A stretch of DNA of 64,000 nucleotides, taken from the IMG/VR virus record IMGVR_UViG_2895055527_000002, positions 1 through 64,000 of that record. One strand, written 5' to 3'. This DNA is from a virus. Lineage: Duplodnaviria; Caudoviricetes. The notes beneath the pieces were generated by a model. That model ran no database searches and was not told the origin of the DNA. It saw only the letters and a list, made by a program, of their open reading frames with translations. Positions within the stretch are counted from its first letter, which is position 1. Each line of letters opens with the position of its first letter. Position numbers and translations under genes: made by a program. Below are positions 16,140 through 34,881 of this stretch, in pieces.

Positions 16140-16156
16140 GTCGCAAGGAAAAGAGC

Positions 16157-16656: not shown

Positions 16657-16756
16657 TACTGCGTACGGCAAGCTGGGCTACTATGAACGGCAAGTAAAAC
16701 TACTACGGACGGCAAGTGAGTGGTGATGTATGTCACCAAATTTGCCAAAATCCACA
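16657..16756. repeat. Three direct repeats TACTRYGNACGGCAAG at exact 22-bp period, plus a TGGTGA-N6-TCACCA palindrome
   Basis: Copies start at 16657, 16679, 16701; palindrome 16721-16738; possible terminal CCACA at 16752-16756. Confidence 0.8.
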
Positions 16757-16787
16757 GCTGCATCACCCGGGGCCCTTTCCCGTCGGC

Positions 16788-17030
16788 TCACTCTTCGTCT
16801 GACGCAGCAGAGTGGTAAGCCTCTATCCCGATTTGCTGGCCGGCTTGATATGCCAGCACCGAGTCGGTTCTCACAAGCCGGTTGCTCCCAGTTATATGGT
16901 GTAGTTTGAGCTTGCCTTGGTCGATGAGCTTGGCGACGTGCGTCTGGGAGACGAACAGCATCTTCGCTGCGTCCGCGATGGACATGAATTCGTCGTCCTC
17001 TCGACTCGACTTCTTCTTACCTTTCGACAT
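16788..17030 (-). CDS. Excisionase-like (HTH_17) DNA-binding protein
   Basis: FMSIADAAKMLFVSQTHVAKLIDQGKL..NRLVRTDSVLAY; AAGGA before ATG 17030. Confidence 0.75.
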   Translation of the reverse strand: MSKGKKKSSREDDEFMSIADAAKMLFVSQTHVAKLIDQGKLKLHHITGSNRLVRTDSVLAYQAGQQIGIEAYHSAASDEE

Positions 17031-17245
17031 CGTGGTGTCCTTGGTGGCCAATACACGATTTGAGCCTAGACTAAGCCACCTACAAAGACAATCGAGTAAG
17101 CGGAACCCGTGAGCTGCGGCTACGTATCGGGCAGGCAATCGTAGTTCATGCGGCATTGAGCCGTAGGGTCAGACGTAGTCGCGGATTATGCGGCTCCAAT
17201 TGACGTGGCCTCGTATCTCGGTTGCTGTCGTCAACTGTCGATGAT

Positions 17246-19051
17246 TCAGGCCGCGGCAGCTGCTAGACGCGCGGCATAGTCGTCCATTGCGCTCACAATG
17301 TTCGCTAGGAGAGGGTGGAAGCCAGCCCAATCTAGCTCTTTGGCTTGCTTCGCGACAAATTCGTAAGCGAAATCAGCCTTGCCCACCGACGTAGTCGAAC
17401 TAGACTCTGATGAGAAGTCGAAGGGCTTCCCGTTAAGGCCCTTCGCGATGTCCACTTGTGAAAAGAGGTCCTCGATGCTTCGTTCTTTGGCGTTGCCTAG
17501 AGGAACCGGCACGATGTATAGGTTGGCGAACAGGTGGACGAAGGACTCGTCTCCAGTAATTGTTAACTTCAACGTGTCTTTGACCACCTTGAAGACTGTT
17601 TTGCCACCACTATCGTTGTCAACAATGAAAATGACCGGTTGCTTGCCCCCAGGTGACTTGAACTTCGCCAGTTCGCCATGATAGGCACGAATCAGGTTTC
17701 CTAAATTTGCCCCGCCGCCGCTACCGCCCCCCAAAATGGTGATGGTGGAGTAGTTGGGGAGATGCACCATCTTCTTTTTCTTGTGTTTTCGTGCGTACTT
17801 TAGTAGTTGAAAGGACAGCACGTCTTCCTTTTCGACATTTTTCTTTACCAGGCTAGGGAAGAGATTTTTGCTTTGATGTACCGCATTGCTGATATACACA
17901 CCATCCGTCTTTCCCTCACACACTATCAGCGGTACGGTGTTCGCATAAAAGCGGGTGTATATGAGGAAACGCCGATAGATGGCCAAATTGCCTGTGGGCT
18001 TCTTTTCGTTAGCTTGCTGCCCTGGATAGTTGTATGGATGCCTTTTGATATCTGTACGAAAAACGCTGTCAACGGAATGGATAAAACCCAACATTCCATG
18101 AAGCTTCGCCGGCGTTCCTTCTTCCTCGAACGTCTGTAGTTTGCCATGCACGTCAGGGACTTGGCGTTTGACTGTGTATTTGCCGTTCTTGACAAGGGAC
18201 GCCACGTAAGCCCGCACGAGATACCTATACTCGGTGCTGACGTTTACCTTCTTGTTCACGACGAGTCCCGTGACCTGTTGTCTGGAGTCTCGATATTGCA
18301 TTCGGGTTTTCTTCTCGTTGATTGAGAAGCCGCTTCGCAAAATCAGTCGCTGGAGTTCTGCTCCGACGTGCCAGCTGTGTTCTTTGGAGTCATCACGATA
18401 CGCAATCGCCGCGGGAAATACTTCCTTGTTCGTAGAAAACGTGAGGTCGTCGGCGTATCTCGTGTAAGTGCAACCGTGCATCTGGGCTAGCTTGGAAAGG
18501 TGCGCATCCAAGATTCCGGCAATCATGTTGGATATGACCGGTGAGCACGGGCTGCCTTGGGGAAGCACCCCATCTCGGCAGGCTATATGGGCGATGGTCG
18601 TGGCTACTTTCGCATCAAACGCAAAATATCTATCGTTGATGAGGAATCCTCGGATTCTCTGCCCCGAGATGCTCGGAAAGAAATCCTTGAGGTCAAGATT
18701 GAACACGTATCGCCTGTTGCGGTGTGCAGCAGCATTCGTGAGAATGCTTTTTCCCGGACGGAAGCCATGAGAAGCTTTATTAGTTCTCTTGGTCAGCGCG
18801 GCAATATCCACGAGACATTGTTCCAGCGCAGCAGCAAGTTTGCGTTGTAACGACTTTAACTCGGATGTGGGAGCACAAATATCCCGGCTGCCTCCGCTAC
18901 TCTTGGGAATCGAAAATACGTTATACCTTTCAGGATCTTTCTTGACGTAGAGAAGGTACGTCAGGTCTTGGTGCTTGATGTCAAGAAGCATCGCGAGCTC
19001 TGCACGCGATTTGGCGCCTTGGAACCACTCAAGTGTATTTTTCGGAAGCAT
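17246..19051 (-). CDS. Retron reverse transcriptase fused to a TOPRIM nuclease (Ec67/Eco2-like, type I-C)
   Basis: Region X NAAAH, LPQGSPCSP, YTRYADD, region Y VTGLVVN; TOPRIM CEGKTD, IVDNDSGG, IEDLF, GKADFA. Confidence 0.93.
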   Translation of the reverse strand: MLPKNTLEWFQGAKSRAELAMLLDIKHQDLTYLLYVKKDPERYNVFSIPKSSGGSRDICAPTSELKSLQRKLAAALEQCLVDIAALTKRTNKASHGFRPGKSILTNAAAHRNRRYVFNLDLKDFFPSISGQRIRGFLINDRYFAFDAKVATTIAHIACRDGVLPQGSPCSPVISNMIAGILDAHLSKLAQMHGCTYTRYADDLTFSTNKEVFPAAIAYRDDSKEHSWHVGAELQRLILRSGFSINEKKTRMQYRDSRQQVTGLVVNKKVNVSTEYRYLVRAYVASLVKNGKYTVKRQVPDVHGKLQTFEEEGTPAKLHGMLGFIHSVDSVFRTDIKRHPYNYPGQQANEKKPTGNLAIYRRFLIYTRFYANTVPLIVCEGKTDGVYISNAVHQSKNLFPSLVKKNVEKEDVLSFQLLKYARKHKKKKMVHLPNYSTITILGGGSGGGANLGNLIRAYHGELAKFKSPGGKQPVIFIVDNDSGGKTVFKVVKDTLKLTITGDESFVHLFANLYIVPVPLGNAKERSIEDLFSQVDIAKGLNGKPFDFSSESSSTTSVGKADFAYEFVAKQAKELDWAGFHPLLANIVSAMDDYAARLAAAAA

Positions 19052-19062
19052 TTAGATAGAGA

Positions 19063-19193
19063 GCCCCGTAGACACTCCAACGCGTATTGGCTCCTGCTCC
19101 ACATGGCGCCAATCAGGTTGATATCGATGCAGCATAGGTCCTAACATTGTTGTCAAGTGCCATGATTCATGGCAGAAATTCTGTCTACGAGGC
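19063..19193 (-). ncRNA. Retron msr-msd RNA
   Basis: 12-bp terminal duplex GCCUCGUAGACA/UGUCUACGGGGC (one G-U); unpaired G at 19181; msr hairpins UGCCAUG-AAU-CAUGGCA and CUUGACA-ACAA-UGUUAGG; msd hairpin about 19078-19120. Confidence 0.85.
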
Positions 19194-19200
19194 GACTCCG

Positions 19201-19209
19201 ATAATATCA
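19201..19209 (-). promoter_or_regulatory. Extended -10 promoter of the retron
   Basis: TG-A-TATTAT, 7 nt upstream of the first base of the msr repeat. Confidence 0.6.
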
Positions 19210-19468
19210 AAGTGCTCTCCGACTCGACAGCAGCATCTCATCTCTTGCGTTGTGCTGTAGCTGCGGGAGTTGCGTTGGATTTGCTCTTGAGTTAGATTCG
19301 CTTCTGCGTCGCAGAACGTCGGCGCGCTGCCCACCCCTTGGGGCTTTCCGGCCGCAGTCAAGCTTTCGCATCGTTCCAAATCCAATCTTCAAAATATCTG
19401 AACCCGGTCTCCGGGCGTCAGAGAATTCGGGTGGGCGTCTCTGACGGAACTCTAAGGAGTGACGGAAC

Positions 19469-21121
19469 GTGGACACATCCGATTTTCATTTTCTCGACGC
19501 CAAGCACAAGGTAGAGCGGCAGGCTCGACGTCTTCAAAAGCATCTAAACGTGCGTCTTCGTGTCGCGCGTGCCGTGCTGGCTGAGGGGCCGTACCAATGT
19601 AAGAGTTGGGAAAGCCTTCTCGCGCGACTCGCTTGTCCAACAACACATATCAGAATGTTGGCATCACTACCTGGTGACAACAGGGCCGAGCACTATTTGT
19701 CTGCAAATTTGGACGGCATTGCCCGGTCCATTGCCCAGCAAATAATGCCTAACACCAATCTTGCCGGCCTTTACGACATTGTGAGGAAAATGTTCCTCGC
19801 GAATTGTGCCCCGACAACGCTTGAGCATGTCGCGCCGTCACTCCCCCCACTTGCGTGGGAGCCTGCGAATCTTGGTCCCGATGCCTACGCGGTGATGTAT
19901 GCAAATGCGAACGTGAACGGCAATGCATTCCGAGTAGTCGCTACGCGAACTTACCTGCCAGATTATCTCGACTTCGGCGCCGAAGTGGACCACCCGGAAT
20001 TAGCCTATCCGGTTGGGAAGTTCAAAATTGTCTGGACTAACCCCGACGCGTGGCTGGATGCGGCACGAACTTATCTTTTTGCCCCCAAAGATGAGTGGGA
20101 TGTCGATCTGGCTCTCCCGGAAGAAATTCTCGACGAACATATGGCCGCTCATGAGCGGTGGTTCACGAAAGCCCTGGCGACAATGCCTTACCGGGGCGAG
20201 TACAGTGAAGAACTCAACGAGCGTCCCATTCCATACTTTTACAGGGGGGACGCATACTTGCTCTTTGGCCTCCCCACGGTCGGGGGGGTGAACCGGAAGG
20301 CACCTAACCTCGAAGTAGAAATTTCGGCATCGGATGCCAACGGGGGCAAGCTGTTTTCCGTGGAAGGTGTGCCAATGTTGCTCGAATGGAGTAAAGCGCA
20401 AGCCGAATTGGGCGATGACATCGGAGAGCATCGATTGGCAAACACGTTTGTTGATGCAATCGCCTCGGACTCAATCAGTATGTGCTTTGATGTGGGGCGC
20501 ACGGACGTTGGTCCCTCAATCCTCATGCGACCGGCATGCGGTACCGATATCCGCCTTGCCTTGAAGCTTGAGCTGATGCCAACTGCGGGAGAGGAGGCCT
20601 TCGTACTTCGGAGTGATTCCCCGGAACTTGCTGAGATACTCGTCGCGAAGATTGCTGCGCGGCAAATACTGGTCGATAGAACGGTTGCCGCTTGTCCCCG
20701 TTATGCCGTTGCGTTGAGGCTTCCGAGAAATGTAAGGGGACTTCTTCAAGTCGGTCTGGAAGTTCGGATGAATAAGGCTGAAGGTGTACGTTCGAATCTC
20801 ATTCCGACAACATACATCGAGGTGATCGATGACGATTGGGCGATGGTCTACTTCCCTCTGGGCATCACTCTTCTGGCGTTACTCGAGGCACTCGGCAAGT
20901 GGGCGCTAATAGATGCTGTCGTTGACGGCAGGGTCATCCGGCGACCAATTGGTTTTGAGGCTAGCCTAGCGAATGAACCAGCTTGGACGAAAAACCTTCT
21001 AGACTCAGGCCTGAATTTCGACGCAATGTTTTGCGGAGGCAGGAAGATCCCTTTGGGTCGTACCGCCTACGAGTTGCTCCGAACGGCAAGAGTCACTAAG
21101 TACGCACGCGACTTCTACTGA
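19469..21121 (+). CDS. Large hypothetical protein (550 aa) with an N-terminal helical, possibly DNA-binding domain
   Basis: AAGGAG before GTG; N-terminus RQARRLQKHLNVRLRVARAVLA..Y.CKSWESL; no catalytic motif recognised. Confidence 0.75.
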   Translation: MDTSDFHFLDAKHKVERQARRLQKHLNVRLRVARAVLAEGPYQCKSWESLLARLACPTTHIRMLASLPGDNRAEHYLSANLDGIARSIAQQIMPNTNLAGLYDIVRKMFLANCAPTTLEHVAPSLPPLAWEPANLGPDAYAVMYANANVNGNAFRVVATRTYLPDYLDFGAEVDHPELAYPVGKFKIVWTNPDAWLDAARTYLFAPKDEWDVDLALPEEILDEHMAAHERWFTKALATMPYRGEYSEELNERPIPYFYRGDAYLLFGLPTVGGVNRKAPNLEVEISASDANGGKLFSVEGVPMLLEWSKAQAELGDDIGEHRLANTFVDAIASDSISMCFDVGRTDVGPSILMRPACGTDIRLALKLELMPTAGEEAFVLRSDSPELAEILVAKIAARQILVDRTVAACPRYAVALRLPRNVRGLLQVGLEVRMNKAEGVRSNLIPTTYIEVIDDDWAMVYFPLGITLLALLEALGKWALIDAVVDGRVIRRPIGFEASLANEPAWTKNLLDSGLNFDAMFCGGRKIPLGRTAYELLRTARVTKYARDFY

Positions 21122-21135
21122 ACTGAGGGGAGATC

Positions 21136-21330
21136 ATGCCCGAGCGTAAAGTCGCCAAAAATCAACAACGTTACGATGTCCTTGAGAGTGCCTACTGCTC
21201 GTTTACGGACGACAGGGAGAGGCGTAGAGCATTGATCTCGAGAGACATTCGCCTGGTTCTGATGCGTGCGCTTTCGATTTCGGCCTTATGTGTCGCATCC
21301 TTCTACGGCAAATCCCATTTTCCGTTCTAG
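21136..21330 (+). CDS. Small protein (64 aa) with a hydrophobic C-terminus
   Basis: GAGGGGAG RBS; 14 bp after the 550-aa gene. Confidence 0.6.
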   Translation: MPERKVAKNQQRYDVLESAYCSFTDDRERRRALISRDIRLVLMRALSISALCVASFYGKSHFPF

Positions 21331-21667
21331 GGCGTATCGCAGTGAGATGCCCGCTGGGGTTGGCGCTCCGGCGGCCATCGAGCTGCCAAAGGACGTGGCA
21401 ATGCATCTAGCGCCGGTCGAACAAACGAGCCCATATCATTTCATTCAGGAGCGGGCAGCCTGACAACGTGACTGTGCGGTGAGTAATCGAAATTCATTGG
21501 CCGGTAGGGCGTTCGTTGTGCCAAGACGATTCGCCAAGCCGAACATCCAGTACCCGTTTCGTGGGTGCCTCGGTAAGCATCCGCTCTATACCTAGGGCAG
21601 ATGCGGCAGAGTTTCCGCTAGCGGATGTTTGTTGGTTTGCCACGCGGTAGAACTCTTGATTGTTATG

Positions 21668-22903
21668 TCATCGCCTTTGCCGCCGATGGCGTTCCAAATA
21701 CATCGAGTAATGCTTGTCGAGCGCGTCCGCAGCAGGTGCATCTTTGAAGCGCTCCGGCACAACCGCAAGTGACTTTCCATCGTACTTCTCATAGTCGGTC
21801 CCTCGGAGTTGTGGCGCGACATGGACGATACTTCGTGAGTCGATGGACAACAGATGGAGGTCAAACAGTGTATGAATGTCTGCTCTGAGCAGAAGTCCAT
21901 TATGCACGTTGTAGTCCGTCAGACGCGAGTGTGGAACGATATGCGCCGCTTCCAGCAGTTCTTCAATCCGTGAACCGGTGACTGCACATCGCGTCCGATA
22001 CGCGGTCAATAGGGCGCGCCGGAATTTAACCTGACCACGGCGTGTCTTGATGGCGCGATTCTGGACTTCGTCGTAGGTGCTATCTTCGTCGTCGGCTTGC
22101 TCAACGGTATTGTCTTCGAGCGTCTTTTCAATTCCACGTACGAGCACGCACTCTCCGTTGGAGAAGTCGTAAGAGTGCACATACCACTCCTGGCCATCCA
22201 GATAGCGCTTTTCAACCTTAGCTGCTTGTTCAGCCCGGTCTTCGCCCTCGGGCCGCCTTCCCGCCCCAACGATCACTCGCACCGGAAGTCGCCGCTCAAA
22301 AGACTCTCGGATAGCAACGTCCAGTGCTTTTCCACGTTGAGCTTGTGTCTTCGCTCGGTTGCGCACGTTTTTTTCTATCGCAAGGTCGGTGGCGATTCTG
22401 GTCCGCTGATCGCTCTCGGCGCGAGCGTTCCGGTCAAAATAGATCCAACCGTCTTCGTTGACCTTGAATTCGCTATGCCACAGACAAAGAACGAAGCCTT
22501 CGGTCACGGACCCGAAGCACCACTCGTAGCAAAAATTTGGATTCGACTTGAAGTCTTCATTCCAGCCGTCAATCGATACCCCCGCGTCTCGGAGAAGATC
22601 GTAAAGTGTGCCTTTCGATAACGGCTTGAGGCTCTCAAGTGACTCTGTAGGAGGAGCATCCGCGCGTCTAAACGTGACGAGTCGGTTGACTTGGTCAAGC
22701 CTCACCTGCCTCCAGCCGTATTCCATCCAAAATTGACCTGGGTGACCATCCTTAGTCCTTGAATTTGCCCAGAATGGCTTGAACCGATCAGCCGTTGGTG
22801 GCAATTCGTTGCCGATAATTTTCTCTATATCGGAAAACGAGAGTGTTACTTCACTGTTGGATTGTGCAGCCAAGTGAGCTGCAAGAGGCTGATATTTTCT
22901 CAT
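21668..22903 (-). CDS. Multi-domain HNH endonuclease, putative restriction/anti-phage nuclease
   Basis: C-terminal RRGQVKFR..CAVTG..LEAAHI..HNGLLLRADIHTLFD; N-terminal KYQPLAAHL..LSFSDIEKIIG..FWAN domain. Confidence 0.88.
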   Translation of the reverse strand: MRKYQPLAAHLAAQSNSEVTLSFSDIEKIIGNELPPTADRFKPFWANSRTKDGHPGQFWMEYGWRQVRLDQVNRLVTFRRADAPPTESLESLKPLSKGTLYDLLRDAGVSIDGWNEDFKSNPNFCYEWCFGSVTEGFVLCLWHSEFKVNEDGWIYFDRNARAESDQRTRIATDLAIEKNVRNRAKTQAQRGKALDVAIRESFERRLPVRVIVGAGRRPEGEDRAEQAAKVEKRYLDGQEWYVHSYDFSNGECVLVRGIEKTLEDNTVEQADDEDSTYDEVQNRAIKTRRGQVKFRRALLTAYRTRCAVTGSRIEELLEAAHIVPHSRLTDYNVHNGLLLRADIHTLFDLHLLSIDSRSIVHVAPQLRGTDYEKYDGKSLAVVPERFKDAPAADALDKHYSMYLERHRRQRR

Positions 22904-23180
22904 TAGGTGCCTAGGCTTTATCGCGAGCCCGTGAAAATATAAGCGATTAAGTCAATGGTTCTGCCGGAAAGAATGATTTTAGGCAGTTCGCAGTTAACGT
23001 TGCAGCACATGACTAGTCGCTTTGGCTGAAGTTTCCGCTGGGCACTTCAAGCCACATGCAACAATTAGCCGTCTGATGCGAAAGACATATCGGGTCGCTA
23101 TAGGTACTACGGGCGGGTTCGTTATGGGCGAGGCCCTGTTGAGGGGCCGGCCAAATCTGTTTCGGATACGTTCAGTTTGG

Positions 23181-23513
23181 CTAGTGTGCGTCGTCGTGGC
23201 GCGTATTCAGCCCGTATATGTCCATCTGTGCGGCAGCACTCCCGTCATTGAACAGAGGAGGCATCTTCGCCTCATGTACTGGCGTTGAACGTTGAGCGTC
23301 GTCGTCCAATCTCGTCACTGACCGACGCGACTCCACACGACCAAGGAGCACGAATACAAACATCGGAGCCAGAAAGACCACGATAAGTGCCATCAGCACT
23401 CGCCAGAGTACGGGATGGTCGAGCAGTTCGCGGGCGAACACGAGAAAGACAGTGAACAGGGCAGCCCCTACCAGCACGGATGCCCCCACAAGCATCTTAG
23501 CAGTGATTCGCAT
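23181..23513 (-). CDS. Small two-TM membrane protein
   Basis: Two hydrophobic helices and a polar tail. Confidence 0.55.
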   Translation of the reverse strand: MRITAKMLVGASVLVGAALFTVFLVFARELLDHPVLWRVLMALIVVFLAPMFVFVLLGRVESRRSVTRLDDDAQRSTPVHEAKMPPLFNDGSAAAQMDIYGLNTRHDDAH

Positions 23514-23656
23514 AATGACTCTGGATAACTATTTATCTATTTATGGCCGCGATTTGCGGCATTCCTTCAAATCCATTATATGGGCGATGTCCGAGCAACG
23601 GATAAACTATTACTCCGGGGTTTGGGCGCGTTCTATTGCGGAGTCGCCATTGCAGT

Positions 23657-23992
23657 CTACGTTTCGTCCCCAAATGCGGCTCCAGCTCGATACTCCGCGG
23701 AAACGTCACGTATCGACAGAACCGCATTGATATCGCACCATCTGGACCACGTATATGACGCGTCTCCATCCTCACTCGATGGACCCTCAAGTCGGTAAAC
23801 GCGACCAGACCGCGTCCTACCTTCGCCTCGCGCAGCATCGAACTCTTGGATGGCCGAGCTCACGCGCCCGGCCATCCCCTCGATTGCCCATCCAACAAAG
23901 TGTCGTGTGAGGTCACTGGCCTCAAAGACACGCCAACGAACGAGATGGGTGACTGGCTCCGTGTCGACGGAGCGTGTTTTCCACATGGGCAT
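23657..23992 (-). CDS. Hypothetical protein
   Basis: GGAGG before ATG 23992; WRVFE..RHFVG..GRVSSAI..TRSGRVYRLEG. Confidence 0.7.
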   Translation of the reverse strand: MPMWKTRSVDTEPVTHLVRWRVFEASDLTRHFVGWAIEGMAGRVSSAIQEFDAARGEGRTRSGRVYRLEGPSSEDGDASYTWSRWCDINAVLSIRDVSAEYRAGAAFGDET

Positions 23993-24195
23993 GATGACCT
24001 CCTGCGAAACGCGTGAAAGCACACTCGTAGGCTAGGTCAGTTTCCCTCAGATGAAAGCGAGATTTTCGTGTTGCGTCGCCGCGCTGGGCTCTGCGCGCGA
24101 GAAAATGCGAGTGGCGTGCCTATACTGCTGCGAGAGCGACAAAATCCGGGGCGAGAAAACAGGGCTTTGCTCCGTCGCGAAAATTTGCGTTTGTG

Positions 24196-24375
24196 AATCA
24201 AGGTGTTGCCGAAAATAGTTGCGCCACCTCATGGGTGCGATTCACGGATTTGCGCCAACTTGTGGGTGCGCTTCGGGGTGGTGGGAGATGTGCGAAGTGC
24301 GGAAAGTGAGGGCATTAGGGTACGAGTCCGCCAACTCATGGGTCCGAAACGCGCCAACTTATGGGTAACTCGACA
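24196..24375 (-). mobile_element. Putative Tn7-like transposon end
   Basis: Minus strand begins TGTCGAGTT then ACCCATAAGTTGGCGC; four repeats start at 24221, 24252, 24328, 24351; IHF-consensus AATCAAGGTGTTG at 24196-24208. Confidence 0.72.
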
Positions 24376-24419
24376 TACGTTTTGATGCTGGCGAAAATCT
24401 AGCCGGTTTTTGCCCGTTT

Positions 24420-24836
24420 TTATTCGAAAATGCCATGAACCGTGCCAGCATTTTCTAATACTCGTTTTTCCAAAAATCGCTTTAGTCTGCGTTCGATCCT
24501 GGCGTGTCCGATCGAACCTATCAGATGTCGCAGCATTGCGTCGTCGTCAGGCTGAAGCTCCCCTTTAGTGCGCTCATGATTTAGTTCGGGTCGGAAGATC
24601 CGAATGCACGCTTCCTCATATGCTTGAAGATGTAGCAGGTCGGTTGGCACGAACATCACGTCATCGAACTCTTTGACATTGATGTGTTGGCCGAGTCGTT
24701 GGTAGATGTCTTCTGTCTTTCCTACGTACCTTATCCGCTCGCGCAACAGTAGGAAGTAAATTCCTCGCCGGTTTCGCAAAATCGGGATGTGCTTTAGCCC
24801 TGCGTCTTCAAGAAACTTTTTTTCTTGCATCTTCAA
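24420..24836 (-). CDS. GIY-YIG nuclease-domain protein
   Basis: GIYFLL..RYVGKT..QRLGQH..EEACIRIFRPELN; overlaps the integrase 3' end. Confidence 0.75.
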   Translation of the reverse strand: MKMQEKKFLEDAGLKHIPILRNRRGIYFLLLRERIRYVGKTEDIYQRLGQHINVKEFDDVMFVPTDLLHLQAYEEACIRIFRPELNHERTKGELQPDDDAMLRHLIGSIGHARIERRLKRFLEKRVLENAGTVHGIFE

Positions 24837-26022
24837 TAGCTTGTTGTGAGTGGTTTCCGAACTTCTTCACGGCCTTATTCCCCGCTTCCACGTCCGCTGC
24901 CGGCATCCACCGTCCGTATACTCGCGCGATCATCGTCCAGTCCGCGTGCCCCATCTGCTTTGCAACCCACATCGGGTGTTCGCCCGCCGAAAGCATCATC
25001 GAAGCATAGGTGTGCCGGGTCTGATACGGATTGCGGTAGCGTACGCCAGCCCTTTTGAGAGCGGATTGCCAAATGCGCCAGATCTGATTGGCGCCGGTAA
25101 AGCGCGCTCCCGACCGATCCTTAAAAATTGCGCCGTCTTCTTCGGACAGGAAGGTCAGTGCCTTTTGCGCATGAAGGGCGGCGCTCGCTGGCTCAAGCAA
25201 CCGGATGTCGCGCCGACCCGCCGCAGTCTTCGGGAATTCGGCGACGCCTTTCGCCTCGCGCGTCATCGCGCGACGTACGCGGACGTATCCTCCAACGAAA
25301 TCGATGTCCGACCAGTTGAGAGCGATGAACTCCGAGGTGCGCATCCCGGTCCAGAGCGCAAACTGGATCAGATTTCGATTCCCTCCCGTCAGTTTATCGA
25401 GAATAGCGGCTTGCTCTTGAGGGGAAAGCGGATCGATCTCGTCTTCTTCGATTTCCTTCGGCCGTTCAGCGCGTGCGTAGGTATAACCTGCGAGTGGATT
25501 CGCCTCGATTAATTCGTCTCCTGACGCGTCGCCGAGCGCCGATCGCATGCAGCTTTGGATATTCGCCAGTCGCTTGTTGGAAGCCTTGCGCTCGCGGTCG
25601 TGGTCGATTCCGGCGAGCCAGTCTCTGATAGTCGCGCGCCGGAGATCCGAAAGGGGCAGCTTACCGAATTTCGGGATAACCCAATTGCTCACGATGTTTC
25701 GGTATCCCGTGAATGTTGATGCCTTGATCTCCATCTTCTTCCGGTCTAGCCACTTCTCGAAATACGATTCAACGGTTAGGACGTCACCAGGGCGTTCTGC
25801 AAATTTTGCTGCATGCTTTGAGTCCGGGAACGACTTCACATAGTCAAACTCGCCTTTCTCTATTGCGTGCAGAATCGCGGCCCGGAACTGCGTTATCTTG
25901 CGAGTGTTGGCAGGACAGGGCTTCGCTTTGATCCGCTCGCGGCACCGCCGCCCTTGGTAATGGAAGGTGATTTCATAGCTGGAGTCTGAAACGATGTCGA
26001 CTCCTGTCCTCTTTCTAGCCAT
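24808..26022 (-). CDS. int: Phage tyrosine integrase with N-terminal arm-binding domain
   Basis: TGMRTSE, YQTRHTYAS, MGHADWTMIARVY catalytic motifs. Confidence 0.95.
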   Translation of the reverse strand: MARKRTGVDIVSDSSYEITFHYQGRRCRERIKAKPCPANTRKITQFRAAILHAIEKGEFDYVKSFPDSKHAAKFAERPGDVLTVESYFEKWLDRKKMEIKASTFTGYRNIVSNWVIPKFGKLPLSDLRRATIRDWLAGIDHDRERKASNKRLANIQSCMRSALGDASGDELIEANPLAGYTYARAERPKEIEEDEIDPLSPQEQAAILDKLTGGNRNLIQFALWTGMRTSEFIALNWSDIDFVGGYVRVRRAMTREAKGVAEFPKTAAGRRDIRLLEPASAALHAQKALTFLSEEDGAIFKDRSGARFTGANQIWRIWQSALKRAGVRYRNPYQTRHTYASMMLSAGEHPMWVAKQMGHADWTMIARVYGRWMPAADVEAGNKAVKKFGNHSQQAIEDARKKVS

Positions 26023-26183
26023 CGTTCATACCCCTCCATGTCCATTATGATTTTCTTAGTGCCGGGCTCGTACTTCCAGACCGAACCTTCCGGCCAGATG
26101 CCCTTGCACTTGCGGGTATAGACGGCTGCCGGGGTAAATCCGGTCAGCTCGCAGAATTTTGCGATAGTCACAAAACGTACCAT
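25893..26183 (-). CDS. xis: Excisionase
   Basis: RFVTIAKFCELTGFTPAAVY..GIWPEG..YERW; overlaps the int start. Confidence 0.8.
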   Translation of the reverse strand: MVRFVTIAKFCELTGFTPAAVYTRKCKGIWPEGSVWKYEPGTKKIIMDMEGYERWLERGQESTSFQTPAMKSPSITKGGGAASGSKRSPVLPTLAR

Positions 26184-26421
26184 CGGGACCTCGCTCTATT
26201 GATCGCCCGCGCGTGGCGCTCGGCGGTGAGTATTGCGGAGTTTGGCTTCCATTTTTCAGATCTCATTCTGTCGCGGTGTGCTTCTACCGTTCCTCCGTTC
26301 GCACGAAGGTGGTCGTGCTACGATTCCCGGAACCGATTCTTGATGTTCTCGAAGAGAGCGGATGCAGGTTGACGAGTGATGACGTAGCCCTTGATACGTT
26401 TATCCAGTGGAGGAGGTCGCT

Positions 26422-26811
26422 ATGCCGGACACGCTTCTCGCAGTGGAACTGTTTGAAGACGGTGACCAGACCGGGGTGCGCTACCGGAATGGGGACCCGG
26501 ACAAACCCGTCGCGATCGAGACGTTCGATCGGTTGATCGCCGTTCTAGGGGACTGCCGTGCAGCAATCGAGCCTCCAATAACAGCGGACCCTCCGCCGCC
26601 ACATCTGAAAATGACGGCTGCATACGATCCCAGATGGCAGGTTGGGCCTGATCCTATGGGTGGTGGTGCTGTTCTCAAAATTCGTCATCCCGGCTTTGGT
26701 TGGCTCGCATTTGCGATTCCACTGCCAGAGGTCGAGAACTTCTGTACGGGCCTAGCGAAGATCGCTCAGGCAATGGCAATGGAAGCCCAAGACCACGGGC
26801 CAGCCAACTGA
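26422..26811 (+). CDS. Moron, hypothetical protein
   Basis: GGAGGAGG RBS; antisense to the early-left operon. Confidence 0.7.
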   Translation: MPDTLLAVELFEDGDQTGVRYRNGDPDKPVAIETFDRLIAVLGDCRAAIEPPITADPPPPHLKMTAAYDPRWQVGPDPMGGGAVLKIRHPGFGWLAFAIPLPEVENFCTGLAKIAQAMAMEAQDHGPAN

Positions 26812-26830
26812 CAGAGGGCAGGGGGAAGCC

Positions 26831-27064
26831 ATGGTCCAATTGCACGAGACGTACAGAGGCTGTGAGATCGACATCGAGATCGGCGAGCGCACCATGCTTT
26901 GGGACATCACCATCACTGTGACGCCGCTTGATGGTGTCGAGCTCATTGAGCCGATCGGAAGTCGAAAGCTGAAACTTCCCAAGACTGAAGAGCTCGACTT
27001 AATCGAGCGAGAGCTGATGCACGAAGTTCGGCTCGCGATCGACCGGGACCTCGTTGACCCTTGA
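26831..27064 (+). CDS. Moron, 77-aa hypothetical protein (paralog of 465-698)
   Basis: Purine-rich RBS; internal paralogy supports coding. Confidence 0.75.
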   Translation: MVQLHETYRGCEIDIEIGERTMLWDITITVTPLDGVELIEPIGSRKLKLPKTEELDLIERELMHEVRLAIDRDLVDP

Positions 27065-27180
27065 ACCCGAGGGCTTTTCCCAAATCGTGGCGACAAACAC
27101 TTCTTTCTCACATGCCCATTGGTAGAGTTTCTTTCCGTGGCGTTGCCCACTGATCTAACTGTCATAAAATGGGCATCCTC

Positions 27181-27375
27181 ATGGATATCACCGATCAATA
27201 CGAAGATCTGCTTTCGCGGGTTGAGCGCGCGTGCGCGGACGTCGAAGCTGCAATCAGGCAGTTCGGCGCAGGCCCCGACCGATTGCGCAACGCAACCGCT
27301 CACCGTAATGCTGTTCAGATTGAACTGGTGGAATTCATCCGGCGACTCGGGGCGGCGCAATCCGATCAAGGCTAA
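27181..27375 (+). CDS. Small helical hypothetical protein
   Basis: MDITDQYEDLLSRVERACADVE.. amphipathic ORF. Confidence 0.45.
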   Translation: MDITDQYEDLLSRVERACADVEAAIRQFGAGPDRLRNATAHRNAVQIELVEFIRRLGAAQSDQG

Positions 27376-27524
27376 TACTCGACTCATACGCAGGATCTCT
27401 TTCAGTGCTTCGGCCGTGGTCGGGTGGGTGGTCATGCTGGTTTCCACCTCCTGCGTCCGGGAGGGGGGGCACATAGGCGCGGCTTTGTCGACTACGATTT
27501 CCATAACGCTCATCACGCGCGCTC

Positions 27525-27746
27525 ATGGAGAAACTTGAAATGAACCAAAAAACAAACAGTGGTACTGCCCACGTTTTGAAACTTACGCACGGCAGATACC
27601 AGGGTTACGTTCGGATCAGCCGTCCCGACTTTGGGGGGCAATCGACTATGCGTGGGTGCGGAGGCCCCCACTGTTCACATGTGGCCGCATTGGCTTGCGC
27701 GGTGGCGGCGCTTGTCAGACTGGGCATTCGTGCATCTCCAATGTGA
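27525..27746 (+). CDS. Small hypothetical protein
   Basis: 73-aa ORF; GGAG precedes the internal ATG at 27540. Confidence 0.35.
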   Translation: MEKLEMNQKTNSGTAHVLKLTHGRYQGYVRISRPDFGGQSTMRGCGGPHCSHVAALACAVAALVRLGIRASPM

Positions 27747-27749
27747 GCT

Positions 27750-27848
27750 TCAGTACCGCGGGCTCGTGCATTGCACATTGACGCCTTCGGCTATCAGCAT
27801 GGGCATGGTGTCGCGGCAGTCGCCCAGAATGATCTCGTTCTGTCTCAT
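27750..27848 (-). pseudogene. Truncated phage DNA methyltransferase (N4C/N6A type) N-terminus
   Basis: MRQNEIILGDCRDTMPMLIAEGVNVQCTSPRY*: GDC motif and a degenerate TSPPY, then a stop. Confidence 0.65.
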
Positions 27849-27880
27849 GCTAGGATTCCTCGAAACTTCGTGGAGAGGCC

Positions 27881-28303
27881 ATGGAACGTGACAATCTTGG
27901 AGGAATGTCCGACGTCGCAAAGGAAGTTGCCGAGCACAAGCGAATGATGTGGAGGCAGGCGGATGCGCTGCTTATCGAAGCGTCGAAAGCCTGCATGCTG
28001 CTCAATGCTGGTGGAGTAGTCGCCATGCTGGGCTTCGAGCAAGCGCTACTAGGAAAGGATGCGCATTTGTTCGCCGCCTTTAAGTGGTTTGGTCTAGGTG
28101 CCGGAGCGCTTTTTCTGATTGGCGCGATGTTGACGGTATTCGCACACCAGGCGCGAGCCAGAAGTCGGATTGGAGTATTCGCGGGGGATGGTCCCCGTTC
28201 TATTGCGAATGGAAAGTACGCCGATCGTCTGATGCTTTCCTCTGCGATAGCGTTCGTGCTTGCTTCGGTAATCGCCGGAATCGGAATCGGTCGACTGGGT
28301 TGA
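27881..28303 (+). CDS. Moron, three-TM membrane protein
   Basis: GGAGAGG RBS; upstream TG-C-TAGGAT; LLNAGGVVAML and two further TM segments. Confidence 0.7.
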   Translation: MERDNLGGMSDVAKEVAEHKRMMWRQADALLIEASKACMLLNAGGVVAMLGFEQALLGKDAHLFAAFKWFGLGAGALFLIGAMLTVFAHQARARSRIGVFAGDGPRSIANGKYADRLMLSSAIAFVLASVIAGIGIGRLG

Positions 28304-28307
28304 TACA

Positions 28308-28559
28308 TCATCGTTTCCGCTCCTCCGCTGCCTGAGAGGCGGCGATGCCTTCCTTCGTCAGGAACCAACACAGCGCGGCCCAGCGGCTGTTATCTGAGCG
28401 CGTGCTACCAGCCAGCCCCCGACGTTCCAGCGAGTGCATAGCTGACACGACGGCGACGTTGTTGCTGCCGATCAGGTAGGCGAGAGACGCCGTAGAAATG
28501 GCGCCGAAACTATTCTTCGTGTTGAGCTTGCGGGCGCACCGAAGTTGGAATTCAGTCAC
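28308..28559 (-). CDS. Winged-HTH protein, paralog 2
   Basis: GTGA overlap with the upstream gene; STASLAYLIGSNNVAVVSAMHSLERRGL..SRWAALCWFLTKEG. Confidence 0.7.
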   Translation of the reverse strand: MTEFQLRCARKLNTKNSFGAISTASLAYLIGSNNVAVVSAMHSLERRGLAGSTRSDNSRWAALCWFLTKEGIAASQAAEERKR

Positions 28560-28813
28560 GCATCCCCCTTCGCCTGATTGGCGGCAATGGCGGCTCGGCC
28601 TTCGGCGGTCAGGTGCCAGTACAAGGCTGCCCATCGGCTGTTCTCCGGCCAATACACGCCGCGCACCAATCCCTTTCGCTCGAGCGAACGCATCGCTGAT
28701 GTGATCGCCACATTAGACGTCGCCAGTCGGCCTGCAAGGCGCGCCGTTGATGTCGTACCGGGCCCGTCATTTTGCACAAGAGATTTCATGCAGCGGTTTT
28801 GAAAATCAGTCAC
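28556..28813 (-). CDS. Winged-HTH protein, paralog 1
   Basis: STARLAGRLATSNVAITSAMRSLERKGL..SRWAALYWHLTAEG. Confidence 0.75.
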   Translation of the reverse strand: MTDFQNRCMKSLVQNDGPGTTSTARLAGRLATSNVAITSAMRSLERKGLVRGVYWPENSRWAALYWHLTAEGRAAIAANQAKGDA

Positions 28814-29477
28814 GCTTCACCCCCTGTGAGGCAATAATGGCGGCGTCGACGGCGGTGTCTAGATTGTCGTCATCGGATTCATCTTCGATGCGTGCCGACG
28901 TATAGAACGTAAGCTTCCAGATCGTTCCGTCTTCTTCATCAAGGCGTGGTTCTGCATACCAATCGTTCTGGTCCCGTAGCCACCGGTACCGCTGCGCATC
29001 CCGCTTGTCCTCCCTGCCATCCGCAGACAGCGCGGCGCGGGCTTGCCAGCCGTTCCATGCGCGTTCTTCATACGGCGCTTGATACTGCCCCCGTGTCTCG
29101 CCCCAGCCGGGGAATTCAATGCGCTTAAAGAGCCACACTGTAGACGGATACGTTTTGCGCATTTCTTGCTCAAACGCCTCCCGCTCATCCCCGCCTGCCT
29201 TTGCAGGAGACGTGAGGACGGGACTGGCGTACACGTCGAAATGACGGCCCATGCGCCAAGCGTCGTCGAGGGGCTCGAACTCGATATGCCCCTCGTCGAT
29301 ATGCACGCGGCCAACGGGCTGGCGTTCCATCGTGGCGATCGGCGACGAGGGATCGAGGACAGATTCCGCAGCGGCCCGGAACTGCTCGACGTTCGCAAAG
29401 AAGATGCTGCCGTCGGAAAGGACGTGTGCGCCTGCTGCCTTGATCGCGGCAAGCATCGCGGTTGTGAGTTCAGACAT
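28806..29477 (-). CDS. Phage early-left mosaic hypothetical protein
   Basis: Typical modules EREAFE, AWNGWQARAAL, DAQRYRWLR, LDTAVDAAI. Confidence 0.75.
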   Translation of the reverse strand: MSELTTAMLAAIKAAGAHVLSDGSIFFANVEQFRAAAESVLDPSSPIATMERQPVGRVHIDEGHIEFEPLDDAWRMGRHFDVYASPVLTSPAKAGGDEREAFEQEMRKTYPSTVWLFKRIEFPGWGETRGQYQAPYEERAWNGWQARAALSADGREDKRDAQRYRWLRDQNDWYAEPRLDEEDGTIWKLTFYTSARIEDESDDDNLDTAVDAAIIASQGVKRD

Positions 29478-29676
29478 CTGTGTCTCCTGTGTCGAGAGGG
29501 CAATGACGGCCAGTCGCTCGCGGCTCGTTGTCGCGGATCTGCGGGCACTGGTCGTGGAAGCACTCGCCGTCGCGGGAAGCTGCGCAGTGCCGCAGAGATT
29601 TGAGCGTCTCCACCACTGAAGGCGGAGCCGGATCGGTATTCAGCCCTTCAGGGCGGGGGTTTTGGTAGTGGCTCAT
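29470..29676 (-). CDS. Small Cys/His-rich phage protein
   Basis: CAASRDGECFHDQCPQIRDNEP..GRHCPLD; coupled to the next gene. Confidence 0.65.
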   Translation of the reverse strand: MSHYQNPRPEGLNTDPAPPSVVETLKSLRHCAASRDGECFHDQCPQIRDNEPRATGRHCPLDTGDTDV

Positions 29677-29708
29677 GTTAGGATTTCGCGAAACAACAGG
29701 AGACGGTA

Positions 29709-30071
29709 ATGGCGATCACCATGCGCAACACCAAGTTCATCGATTGCGGGACGGGTATAAGCGCACCTGCCGATGCAGACCTGGATCTGGATCAAGTTGA
29801 GTTCAGTCGAGTGCAGACGGCACTGATGATTCGCCCCGGCGAGAAGTCAGAGGCCTTAATGGAATTGTTGGGGAAGCTTCCACCGGGACTTCAAGTCGAT
29901 GACGTAATTGCCTTATTGACGCAGTTGCGTGACGACGGAGTGGACGGAAAGACGGCTGACGCAGGCGAGGTTATCGGGAAGAAGGTGTCTTTGTGGGCAG
30001 CGGCCAAGGATATTGCCCCTGAGGTAACGGCTTACCTAATCAAAACGGCGATCGAATATTTCAAGCTCTGA
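29709..30071 (+). CDS. Moron, hypothetical protein
   Basis: AGGAG RBS and upstream TG-T-TAGGAT. Confidence 0.7.
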   Translation: MAITMRNTKFIDCGTGISAPADADLDLDQVEFSRVQTALMIRPGEKSEALMELLGKLPPGLQVDDVIALLTQLRDDGVDGKTADAGEVIGKKVSLWAAAKDIAPEVTAYLIKTAIEYFKL

Positions 30072-30654
30072 TCGGTATTGCGTCTGATGCCGAGCGCGGT
30101 TCGATGTACCGCCGCGGGGCCTCGACGTACTCGCGCCAAGCCACCCATCCGTGGGGCGTATGAAAGCCCCAGTTGCGCTGCCACGGCCCCATGACGAATA
30201 GGGACCATGCCTCACCGCCGTCTGGGATTTCTAGGCGGTGGCGATCGGTTGCCCGTCGGAAGACAATCGATCCTGGACCGCGCCAGACGCGGCGATAGCC
30301 CTGCACCGTCGCTGCGTAGGAGCCTGAGCGGAAAGTCCTCTCGGGGCGGCTATCGAATCTTGGCAACTGATCCTGATCGGTCGGGATGACTTCCCAGTAT
30401 CCACCGCGCAGGACAATCGAGACGTTCCACCATGGGTGATCGTGAAGATCGCGGCCCGCATCGCTTCGAATGGTCCGGTGAACGCGGGCGCCCCAACTGG
30501 TATCGCGTCGACCGTCCTCGGCGGCGCTGGCGTCGTGGCCTCGCGGCTTCTTGACCCACCAGCGCTGCATGTAGCCTTTCAGGTCAAAGTAGGGCGTTCG
30601 CTGGGCACGGGCGATGATTGCACTCGCGACGAACTTTGGTATCCAGATACGCAT
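30061..30654 (-). CDS. Phage cupin-fold protein
   Basis: RVHRTIRSD..DLHDHPW..SIVLRGGYWE..HRLEI..WGF. Confidence 0.75.
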   Translation of the reverse strand: MRIWIPKFVASAIIARAQRTPYFDLKGYMQRWWVKKPRGHDASAAEDGRRDTSWGARVHRTIRSDAGRDLHDHPWWNVSIVLRGGYWEVIPTDQDQLPRFDSRPERTFRSGSYAATVQGYRRVWRGPGSIVFRRATDRHRLEIPDGGEAWSLFVMGPWQRNWGFHTPHGWVAWREYVEAPRRYIEPRSASDAIPIRA

Positions 30655-30656
30655 GA

Positions 30657-31550
30657 TCAGGCTCCCGGGGCGGCGCTGATGTCGGAGTGCGCGGTGAGCA
30701 GTTCGCGCAACGCCTTCGCGCTCACGGAAACCTGAAAGTCAGTTTCGCTCTTCGTGATCGCGATGCGTTCAGCCTCGGGCAGCGTCGAGACGAAGGAGCC
30801 AACGCGCTCGACATATGTGTTGACGACCTTGCGCGGGTAAGACTTCCCCTTGATCGACCCGGCCGTGACCTTCTTTTTACCGCTTGCCGAAGCCTTCTCC
30901 AGTTCACCGGACAGGAACGTCCCGGCCGCCTCGCCGTGTTGTCGCACGGCGTCGGCGGCGACCGATGCCGAAGTTTTGCCTGCGAACACGAGGCGGTGAA
31001 CGTCCGTGTTCGCGCCAGCCAACACGAGCATCTTTCCGACCCATTGGGGTGATACCTGGTCGCTCTCGGCGATTCTGGTGTTGTCCCAGCCAAACCGGCT
31101 CAGGCGCTGATAACCGAATGCCTTTTCGAGCGGGTGAAGCGGGCGGTTCTTGTTGCTCGACAAGATTCGAAGGGTTCGGTCGGCGTCGTTCCCGTCGAAC
31201 GCGTCGATCCGAATCATCAACTCGCCGTCCCGATCCCGGAGGGGCGCGCCCGCAGCGTCGGCGCGACCGATGGTTACATGACGACGATGACCGTCGACGA
31301 GCCAGACGCCGCCCTCGGCGCGGGGCCGGACCTCAAGTGCGGGATATTGGCCGCCCGCCATGATGTGCTGAAACAGGCTTTCGTCGTCCGCCTTGGCCTG
31401 TTCGAGTGCCTCGCCTTCGAGAAGGTCGAGCGAGGCGCGCAGATTGAAGCCGGGTTCGATGTGGATATCGGCGTAGCGGATCTTCATTGCGTCCGCGCGG
31501 CGAATTTCCTTGTCGTTGATCTTCTGTTTGAAGGACGGTACGGTGGTCAT
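30657..31550 (-). CDS. ParB/Srx-like N-terminal domain phage protein
   Basis: IEPGFNLR..WLVDGHRR..LHPLEKA plus HTH. Confidence 0.85.
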   Translation of the reverse strand: MTTVPSFKQKINDKEIRRADAMKIRYADIHIEPGFNLRASLDLLEGEALEQAKADDESLFQHIMAGGQYPALEVRPRAEGGVWLVDGHRRHVTIGRADAAGAPLRDRDGELMIRIDAFDGNDADRTLRILSSNKNRPLHPLEKAFGYQRLSRFGWDNTRIAESDQVSPQWVGKMLVLAGANTDVHRLVFAGKTSASVAADAVRQHGEAAGTFLSGELEKASASGKKKVTAGSIKGKSYPRKVVNTYVERVGSFVSTLPEAERIAITKSETDFQVSVSAKALRELLTAHSDISAAPGA

Positions 31551-31900
31551 TTCAATCCTCGTTCGCGGTCGACGGCGGTACGGATGTGTTCTCGGAATCC
31601 CTTGGAAGGGTGTCCGCCGTATGGGTAGAGAGCTTCGATGTGACGCCAGCGCGCGGCGTCCTCTTCGATGTCGTCACGGCGCTGGGCATCGGTCTTGATG
31701 TAGAAGGCGAGGGCAGCGAGCAGGACGTGAGAGTGAGTTTCCAGCGCCTCGGCTAGTGCATGCCGCGCTTCAATCTCTTCGTGATACCTGGCGGACCCGA
31801 CGAGTGCGGGCCGGGGTGATCGGCCACGCTGCTTATTCACGAGCGGCCGGAGTGCTTCCCAAGCCCGCAGTGCTGCTGCCCTGTTCGGGGTATTGCTCAT
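31547..31900 (-). CDS. Phage hypothetical protein
   Basis: ATGA overlaps on both sides; DAARWRH motif. Confidence 0.6.
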   Translation of the reverse strand: MSNTPNRAAALRAWEALRPLVNKQRGRSPRPALVGSARYHEEIEARHALAEALETHSHVLLAALAFYIKTDAQRRDDIEEDAARWRHIEALYPYGGHPSKGFREHIRTAVDRERGLK

Positions 31901-32031
31901 ACGCCGTGCTTCCATCTCACATAGAGGCAGGCGACGAGAAGAACGCCCCAGATGGTCCATGCCGCCGCAGGATGGCGACGGATCCACCGATCGGTGCCGT
32001 TCACAGACCAGATGAGAAAGCGATCAACCAT
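31897..32031 (-). CDS. Small membrane peptide (44 aa)
   Basis: Not in the ORF track; MVDRFLIW..AWTIWGVLLVACLY; overlaps both neighbours. Confidence 0.45.
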   Translation of the reverse strand: MVDRFLIWSVNGTDRWIRRHPAAAWTIWGVLLVACLYVRWKHGV

Positions 32032-32173
32032 TTGCAGGCCTCACGACGATTCGCAGTGCGGAGGTGCCAAAGTGCTCGGCGGCAGCTTGTCCGAGTTCGC
32101 TCCAGGTGCGAGCGATACCATCGCCGCGATAGCGGCCACCGGCCGTATAGACCGTCACGATGAAGTGTTTCAC
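32024..32173 (-). CDS. Small phage protein (49 aa)
   Basis: Not in the ORF track; AGGGGG then GTG; MKHFIVTVYTAGGRY.. Confidence 0.5.
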   Translation of the reverse strand: MKHFIVTVYTAGGRYRGDGIARTWSELGQAAAEHFGTSALRIVVRPANG

Positions 32174-32254
32174 TTGCGCCCCCTAGTGTTGGGAGATGAG
32201 AATGCTTGGCAGGAGCGCCACCGACTCTGACGGACGGCGCCTTAGGAGACGAAA

Positions 32255-33873: not shown

Positions 33874-33949
33874 GATCCTATCGGCCGCACTCTGGCGGCC
33901 GTCACGCCTACGTCATCGGGGGCGTTCCCTCGCCGGGGAGGTGTCAGGT

Positions 33950-34850: not shown

Positions 34851-34881
34851 GTCTTAACAAAAACTCTAAGAGGGCCTAGCT

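Follow-up and report, generated by a model that had tools for sequence, protein, structure and literature searches.

The window, which is the whole stretch of 64,000 nucleotides that was analysed (G000:C1:210018-274017), is divided between two mobile elements (Table 1). Its first 24.4 kb belong to a Tn7-like element, and most of the remainder to a lambda-like prophage. At the junction between them, four copies of the repeat (G/C)CGCCAMCTYRTGGGT (core ACCCAYRAGKTGGCG, written as on the + strand) lead up to a terminal TGT, and this terminus is separated by 44 nt (24376-24419) from the stop codon of the first prophage ORF. The repeats, the terminal TGT and the 44-bp spacing had been described in an earlier note on this DNA, and all three are confirmed. 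The note saw no tRNA or att core where attL is expected, and ARAGORN finds no tRNA gene in the window.

Table 1. Features of the window, in window coordinates, across the transposon end and the neighbouring prophage.
Feature	Position	Strand	Remarks
Right-hand 24.4 kb of Tn7-like element	1..24375		24-bp inverted termini without mismatch, flanked by TACGT at either end
ThsB-like TIR protein	6385..7368	-	PADLOC ThsB, E 5.1e-120
Hachiman HamA + HamB	10630..13577	+	PADLOC E 1.5e-114 and 1.7e-235
Retron-type RT-Toprim (type I-C) reverse transcriptase	17246..19051	-	PADLOC E 6e-202; Pfam RVT_1
DUF7662-HNH nuclease	21668..22903	-	Cargo
IHF consensus WATCAANNNNTTR	24196..24208	+	Internal to repeat 4; single match in the window
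Transposase-binding repeat 4 (predicted)	24221..24236	-	
Transposase-binding repeat 3 (predicted)	24252..24267	-	
Transposase-binding repeat 2 (predicted)	24328..24343	-	
Transposase-binding repeat 1 (predicted)	24351..24366	-	9 bp from terminus; identical in the G001 element
Terminal 9 bp	24367..24375	-	TGTCGAGTT inward, ...ACA on + strand; inverted copy at C1:170647-170655
Target-site duplication TACGT, 5 bp	24376..24380		Other copy at C1:170642-170646; one TACGT only in G025, whose attL is uninterrupted
Remainder of prophage P' arm, cut from att core by the transposon	24381..24470		Collinear with uninterrupted attL arms
Candidate arm-type integrase motif GCCAGCWT	24385-24392	-	
GIY-YIG-like ORF between int and attL	24420..24836	-	Missing at the equivalent place in related prophages
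Candidate arm-type integrase motif GCCAGCWT	24444-24451	+	
Prophage tyrosine integrase, arm-binding N-terminal domain	24808..26022	-	Pfam PF12167 + PF00589; phrog_1
Excisionase	25893..26183	-	phrog_9668, E 2e-17
Lambda-like siphovirus prophage body	26184..64000		PHROGs on 30 ORFs; 27-nt core repeat

No further copies of (G/C)CGCCAMCTYRTGGGT are present in the window on either strand, also when the pattern is relaxed. Allowing at most one mismatch, the count of four compares with 0.04 expected in the window, and none of 100 shuffled sequences reached four. The same search across the genome returns 15 places, and the match is exact at five of them (the four in the window and C1:170656-170671, on the opposite strand), all confined to the two ends of the transposon. 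The IHF consensus reported beside the repeats is indeed present. However, 0.96 matches are expected per window and at least one was found in 65 of the 100 shuffles; its significance, taken alone, is uncertain, and it is given little weight because about one chance match per window is expected.

The remaining 39.4 kb of the element, with the tnsAB-tnsC-tnsD genes and the tRNA-proximal end, is located to the left of the window. The partner end there repeats the terminus in inverted form, without mismatch over 24 bp, and is immediately preceded by TACGT. With the inverted terminus and TACGT found at both ends, the element is bounded at C1:170647-234392 (63,746 bp) by a 5-bp duplication, and window positions 24221-24375 constitute its tns-distal end. 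A tRNA-Leu(TAG) gene (C1:170531-170617) lies 29 nt outside the partner end. The earlier note had proposed to look on this side for an inverted end, a TACGT duplication, a tRNA or other att gene and tns genes, and each of these is present.

The two ends of the element are asymmetric, as scored with a weight matrix that was built from five clear sites. The distal end has four sites in the same orientation, starting 10, 33, 109 and 140 nt from the terminus. The tRNA-proximal end has one strong site followed directly by a weaker, inverted one (matrix score of 14.0, as compared to 28-30). According to PMC9881144, a target-proximal end with sites in both orientations is peculiar to the TnsAB clade, and the tRNA-proximal end here, with its site and inverted site, has this arrangement.

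Just inside the tRNA-proximal end there are three genes, all reading toward that end. The first protein, TnsAB, is encoded by an ORF of 945 residues with rve and Mu-transpos_C domains (PF00665 and PF09299). Its true start is probably M34, giving a protein of 912 residues, since a 99%-identical homologue (P0009) has that length. The best match of known structure is TnsAB of PmcCAST (9bw1_M, E 8.1e-78, residues 52-849), from the cryo-EM structure of the PmcCAST TnsABC complex (PDB 9BW1; 10.64898/2026.05.29.728539), and several TnsB proteins in the Protein Data Bank are matched as well. The TnsA N-terminal domain (PF08722) is not called by Pfam in this protein itself, and is carried by homologues of about 30% identity. 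A conserved T-x-D-F...E-x-K motif is located in the N-terminal third. The TnsA portion of the fusion is thus a predicted one, assigned from full-length homology and conservation of this motif. The invariant columns among six aligned homologues include D148, E161, D562, D633 and E669, which we take to be the TnsA-type nuclease and DDE residues. The two Pfam domains, together with D562, D633 and E669, place the protein among the DDE (RNase H-fold) transposases of the TnsB/MuA type.

The gene for TnsC, a TniB/AAA+ protein of 397 residues (PF05621/PF13401), adjoins that of the transposase, and its best match of known structure is PmcCAST TnsC (E 3e-22). The third protein, of 441 residues, belongs to the TniQ family (PF06527, scored at 33.4 bits, cut-off 27) and has a helix-turn-helix. 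It is closest among solved structures to PmcCAST TnsD (8v32_J, E 8e-22, as compared to 1e-07 for the small TniQ), and by this comparison the element has a TnsD-type selector. None of the three tns ORFs is disrupted, and their proteins are 99% identical to those of a sister species (G001). The locus therefore has the transposase, TnsC, TniQ/TnsD, inverted TGT...ACA termini and 5-bp duplication of a Tn7-like element. It also has the features of the TnsAB-fusion, tRNA-homing clade, namely the fusion protein, a spacing of about 30 nt from an intact tRNA gene, and bidirectional sites at the target-proximal end.

The cargo of the element includes the defence genes listed in Table 1, and ten fluoride riboswitches with their regulon. 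The bounds of the element enclose the defence island, which bears out the proposal that the island as a whole is cargo of a Tn7-like element. No description of a fluoride-riboswitch regulon as Tn7-like cargo was found in narrow full-text searches, and the word 'Fluoride' has no occurrence in the main text of a study of defence-rich Tn7-like cargo (Benler et al. 2021, PMC8649781).

To the right of the junction, the prophage looks complete as judged from its gene content, with repressor, CII-like, replication, terminase, portal, protease and capsid genes, followed by genes for a tape measure protein, a J-like fibre and an endolysin. The last 27 nt of the tRNA gene are repeated at C1:280762-280788, 6.7 kb to the right of the window, providing the attR core that was sought on that side. 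Element and phage therefore use the same host locus, tRNA-Leu(TAG), as had been suggested. The prophage alone would be about 46 kb in length, and prophage and transposon together about 110 kb.

Integrases 84-91% identical to that of the prophage are found in the genomes of three other species (G006, G032 and G025; three of the seven loci scanned from other genomes), and in all three the integrase match ends about 95 nt from a tRNA-Leu(TAG) gene. When the element and one TACGT are removed in silico, the flanks in G000 are collinear with these uninterrupted arms. The attL of G025 is the exact predicted empty site around the junction, with a single TACGT, and the in-silico empty site is identical to an uninterrupted arm in G001 at 95 of 122 positions, ungapped across the junction. 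The collinear flanks and the exact empty site in G025 indicate that the transposon in G000 was inserted after the phage, into its P' arm. The comparison with these empty sites demonstrates the landing inside the att arm that the earlier note had envisaged.

The motif GCCAGCWT, which occurs 0.15 times per kb genome-wide, has two copies in the 168 bp that adjoin the transposon on its right and three in the 262 bp that precede the attR core. The copies in the two phage arms are candidate arm-type integrase sites. Those in the P' arm are now located 64 kb from the att core, and a candidate IHF site (AATCAACGGGTTA) is on the tRNA side of the insertion. In lambda attL, Int must span an IHF bend to connect the arm sites with the core sites. 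By analogy, excision is expected to be impaired here, and it is plausible that the insertion cripples it.

A second copy of the element supports the targeting of the tRNA gene. The TnsD protein was found in two of the 61 genomes searched, G000 and, at 99% identity, G001 of the same genus. The G001 element (G001:C1:786918-826071, 39,154 bp) has only three segments in common with that of G000, namely the first 9.47 kb (97% identity), the final 688 bp (89%) and a piece of 446 bp, and the two differ in their cargo. Its distance from tRNA-Leu(TAG) is again 29 nt, and its duplication (CCTAC) and flank are different. The four distal repeats are identical between the two elements. In the distal 190 bp, substitutions are found at 0 of 64 site positions and 7 of 126 other positions, a trend that is not significant (Fisher p = 0.097). 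The island beside the G001 element has a 74-nt boundary repeat (17 nt of the tRNA gene and 57 nt downstream) that spans the insertion point; as this block is shared by the island and the host site, the order of arrival in G001 is ambiguous. The same 29-nt distance in unrelated downstream DNA (phage in one genome, the 74-nt block of the island in the other) shows that the choice of target is set by the tRNA side and not by the insertion point. From the two same-distance insertions in unlike flanks, and from the homology to TnsD, we infer that this protein recognises the tRNA gene for homing.

The wider family shows a similar relationship to tRNA genes. A search of species-representative genomes with a TnsAB alignment found 101 relatives, of which 80 were kept (about 26-38% identity), from Burkholderiales, cyanobacteria, Ktedonobacteria, Acidobacteriota and others. 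A convergent tRNA gene is found downstream of the tns operon in 11 of the 60 loci scanned out of these 80 (Leu, Met in four, Arg in two, Ala in two, Pro and Glu). In eight of the 11, the terminus starts 28-33 nt past the CCA and has the form TGT (once TAT), six nucleotides, a site and an inverted site. Loci of Burkholderia, Trinickia and Paraburkholderia show this layout of site and inverted site. A pattern search for distal ends in four genomes with Burkholderia and Trinickia relatives returned the tRNA-proximal end alone in each. In the loci of the Burkholderiales type, the tns operon is oriented outward and faces the tRNA gene. The layout differs in one cyanobacterial locus (L058), with tRNA-Leu(TAG) upstream of tnsAB and on the same strand. 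According to PMC9881144, the clade is located at tRNA sites that are recognised by TnsD.

At E <= 1e-10, a full scan for the TnsD family finds 863 cluster representatives, and those that score best outside the genus have 34-36% identity. These overturn the rarity of the selector suggested by a word-indexed search, which gave five matches. A scan of metagenomes for further insertions found a single remnant, 334 bp of the tRNA-proximal end at 87% identity, on contig L113. Its junction is exactly at the TGT, and no other part of the element is present there. The 1,625 bp outside this remnant contain no tRNA gene; either some insertions of the family are not at tRNA genes, or this locus has been rearranged.

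Taken together, the repeats are very probably transposase-binding sites at the tns-distal end of a Tn7-like transposon with a TnsA-TnsB fusion that homes to tRNA genes. The observed ends, duplication, gene set, empty site and second insertion at the same distance are consistent with the following pathway. The TnsD-type TniQ protein would bind the tRNA-Leu(TAG) gene and recruit the AAA+ regulator TnsC, which would in turn place TnsAB, itself bound to the asymmetric ends. TnsAB would then excise the element and join it 25-29 nt downstream of the tRNA gene, in one orientation and with duplication of 5 bp. In this genome a lambda-like phage had already taken the tRNA gene as its attB, and an insertion at a fixed distance therefore fell within the attL of the prophage. 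The core and the candidate IHF site were left on one side of it, and int with the candidate arm-type sites on the other. Formally, the 64-kb element and its cargo of defence and fluoride-resistance genes are now located within the boundaries of the prophage, and they probably prevent normal assembly of the attL intasome, and hence excision.

The proximity of the repeats to the prophage raises the question of whether they belong to the phage instead. They are less than 450 bp from the 3' end of int, and the integrase has an arm DNA-binding domain (PF12167), as would be expected if they were its arm-type sites and the region a plain attL. However, the motif is absent at attR, where its recurrence would be expected for integrase sites, and its exact matches in the genome are solely at the transposon ends. 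The repeats are missing from four uninterrupted related arms, including those of G006, G032 and G025, and in G001 they move with the transposon and are beside a different flank, while it is another motif, GCCAGCWT, that is enriched in both phage arms. This assignment is hardly credible. It is also very unlikely, although marginally less so, that the transposon was already in the attP of the phage and arrived with it. The element does lie inside the prophage, with the attL core on one side and int on the other. A genome of about 110 kb instead of about 46 kb would nonetheless be far beyond what a lambda-like head with this gene set is inferred to package, and the exact 29-nt spacing, as in G001, fits recognition of the tRNA gene, which is present only after integration.

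A possible association with CRISPR had also been raised, and all three core proteins are indeed closest to those of PmcCAST, a type I-B2 CAST. An element that reached this site by RNA guidance would be expected to have a Cas effector, an array and a second, small TniQ, and none of these was found. PADLOC detects no Cas family among the 37 cargo proteins scanned, the one exception being HamB, which matches a Cas3 helicase weakly, and no Cas domains are found in Pfam scans. Rfam finds no CRISPR RNA family in 68 kb (loci L009-L011 and the window), and TRF no array-like tandem repeat. There are two TniQ-family genes in the genome, of which just one is inside the element, and this is of the TnsD type. 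Membership among the CASTs was rejected on these grounds, and arrival by RNA guidance is extremely improbable. More weight, though still little, is given to the view that the end is a genuine Tn7-like one and the element a fossil, now immobile and without consequence for the prophage. One related copy, that on L113, is a truncated remnant. In G000, on the other hand, the three tns ORFs are intact and their proteins 99% identical to those of the sister species, both ends and both duplications are perfect, and the two copies differ in cargo and flanks, pointing to recent independent activity. The tRNA-homing transposon described above may thus be currently active.

No description of a Tn7-like insertion within the att arm of a prophage was found in narrow full-text searches. 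By all features tested, the element is a further member of the known TnsAB-fusion, tRNA-homing clade, in an unusual position. Most work on this clade has concerned cyanobacteria and the I-B2 and I-D CASTs, for which it is the chassis. The present element extends its host range to the Burkholderiales, with a single selector and no CRISPR components, and with relatives at tRNA-Met, tRNA-Arg and tRNA-Ala. For annotation, the entire defence island to the left of the prophage and the regulon of ten fluoride riboswitches should be assigned to the transposon as cargo, and the true attL core of the prophage is 64 kb away from its int gene.

The two mobile elements now share one tRNA site and are probably in conflict over it. 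If the split attL blocks excision, the locus would be a simple example of a mobile element that has been grounded by another. It can be speculated, with little confidence, that tRNA-homing Tn7-like elements regularly land inside integrase-driven elements at the same tRNA gene, since homing measures a fixed distance from the tRNA, and that this is a general and selectable interaction. If so, there would be two outcomes: the transposon splits attL and thereby locks the prophage in place, or it leaves as a passenger upon excision. For the filamentous-phage-like island next to the G001 copy, departure as a passenger is conceivable, as the length of DNA in a filamentous capsid is not strictly limited. 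A transposon rich in defence genes that disarms prophages at shared tRNA sites, or hitch-hikes on them, would then be a new form of conflict or cooperation between mobile elements.

A comparison can be made with several known systems. In Tn7, the TnsD-family selector binds the 3' end of a conserved gene (glmS), and insertion occurs at a fixed distance downstream, leaving the gene undamaged; the transposon has asymmetric multi-site ends, TGT/ACA termini and a 5-bp duplication. The present element is similar in its selector logic, as predicted here, and in its ends, termini and duplication. It differs from Tn7, which has separate TnsA and TnsB, a TnsE pathway and another target gene, and the sequence match between its TnsAB and Tn7 TnsB is marginal (7pik_A, E 0.087). 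Tn6677 (VchCAST) has a separate TnsA and is RNA-guided. The earlier note had likened the repeats to the TnsB sites of Tn6677-like elements, and at the level of the motif this likeness stands: the repeat core matches 11 of 12 bases of two arm sites printed in 10.1101/2022.05.30.494051, and the TGT-type terminus is similar. It does not extend to the proteins, which are those of the TnsAB-fusion, tRNA-homing clade. Tn6677 TnsB is matched in the catalytic core alone (9y7b_A, E 1.1e-12, residues 453-690), and this, together with the fusion protein, rules out membership in the I-F3 (Tn6677-like) group.

The type I-D CASTs McCAST and CyCAST are closer. They belong to the TnsAB-fusion clade, have a 5-bp duplication, and carry both site orientations at the target-proximal end (PMC9881144 and PMC10293859). 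Their TnsD-directed insertion is downstream of tRNA-Leu, at 30-33 nt in CyCAST (PMC10293859) as compared to 29 nt here. They differ in having type I-D cas genes, which were not found in this element, and the McCAST termini are TAC/GTA (PMC9881144) rather than TGT/ACA.

The most similar system in its proteins is PmcCAST (type I-B2; PDB 9BW1, 8V32 and 8FCU), which also has a natural TnsA-TnsB fusion, TnsC and TnsD. The identity of the proteins is only about 30%, and the host of PmcCAST is a cyanobiont, whereas that of the present element is a proteobacterium. The Cascade, CRISPR array and small TniQ of PmcCAST are missing here. Protein-guided homing beside a tRNA gene, as described for PmcCAST in PMC10293859, is predicted for this element as well, with the tRNA-Val of a plasmid as the target in PmcCAST (PMC10293859) and tRNA-Leu(TAG) as the target here.

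The transposon carries ten fluoride riboswitches within 22 kb, each scoring 48.6-57.3 bits against RF01734. The genes downstream of them encode a CLC protein, a Na/H exchanger, a pyrophosphatase, a HAD protein, an enolase and CrcB, a Na/Ca exchanger with a cyclopropane-fatty-acid synthase, a MutS-like pair, a dynamin-like GTPase and histidine phosphatases. Together these genes form a mobile regulon for fluoride resistance, which the transposon carries in its cargo.

The approximately 4 kb past tnsAB are 97% conserved between this element (genome G000) and the copy in the sister species G001, despite their otherwise differing cargo. The stretch codes for small uncharacterised proteins, one of which has a DUF6471 domain; their genes may have an accessory or regulatory role in the transposon core. 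In both elements, the tns-distal end is where defence genes are concentrated. In G001, a Cap15-type CBASS effector (L020:1360-3263) adjoins this end, in the position occupied by HNH, retron and Hachiman genes in G000. The G000 element also encodes a control protein of the restriction-modification type (PADLOC E 4e-22), adjoined by three large ORFs (364, 270 and 436 aa) with no family match in Pfam or PADLOC. Together, these four genes may form an unrecognised defence module.

Positions of features in the transposon, the prophage and their surroundings (C1, contig of G000; L009 and L010, transposon loci left of the window; L012, locus right of it; L113, metagenome contig)
Feature	Position	Equivalent position	Strand	Location
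Conserved ~4-kb stretch	G000:C1:176090-180113	L009:8090-12113		past tnsAB
Fluoride riboswitch cluster	G000:C1:184756-207026	one at L009:16756-16820, nine in L010:1030-19026		transposon, left of window
Control protein and three large ORFs	window 1735-5680			transposon
GIY-YIG-like ORF	window 24420-24836		-	between int and attL
Type II hammerhead ribozyme	window 33556-33619		+	prophage early region
Autotransporter gene, 893 aa	L012:5806-8487		-	just inside prophage attR
Inovirus-like island	G000:C1:280762-299725	L012:8762 onward		right of window
tRNA-proximal transposon end remnant, 334 bp	L113:1626-1959			metagenome contig

On the prophage side, the integrase matches of the related prophages in G006, G032 and G025 stop roughly 95 nt from the tRNA. 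The GIY-YIG-like ORF is therefore an extra insertion in the G000 prophage. The hammerhead ribozyme scores 42.8 bits (gathering score 37). The autotransporter, with an autochaperone and a β-domain, is likely encoded by a moron at the prophage end.

The metagenome remnant has an exact junction at TGT. Its neighbours are ordinary metabolic and regulator genes, and no tRNA is found in the 1,625 bp on its outer side.

A third element, an inovirus-like island, lies in tandem at the tRNA used by the transposon and the prophage. It encodes an integrase, a C5 methylase, a GIY-YIG protein, a G2P-like Rep, a secretin and a Zot-family ATPase, and a 74-nt direct repeat marks its boundaries in G000. In G001, a related island of 12 kb borders the transposon.
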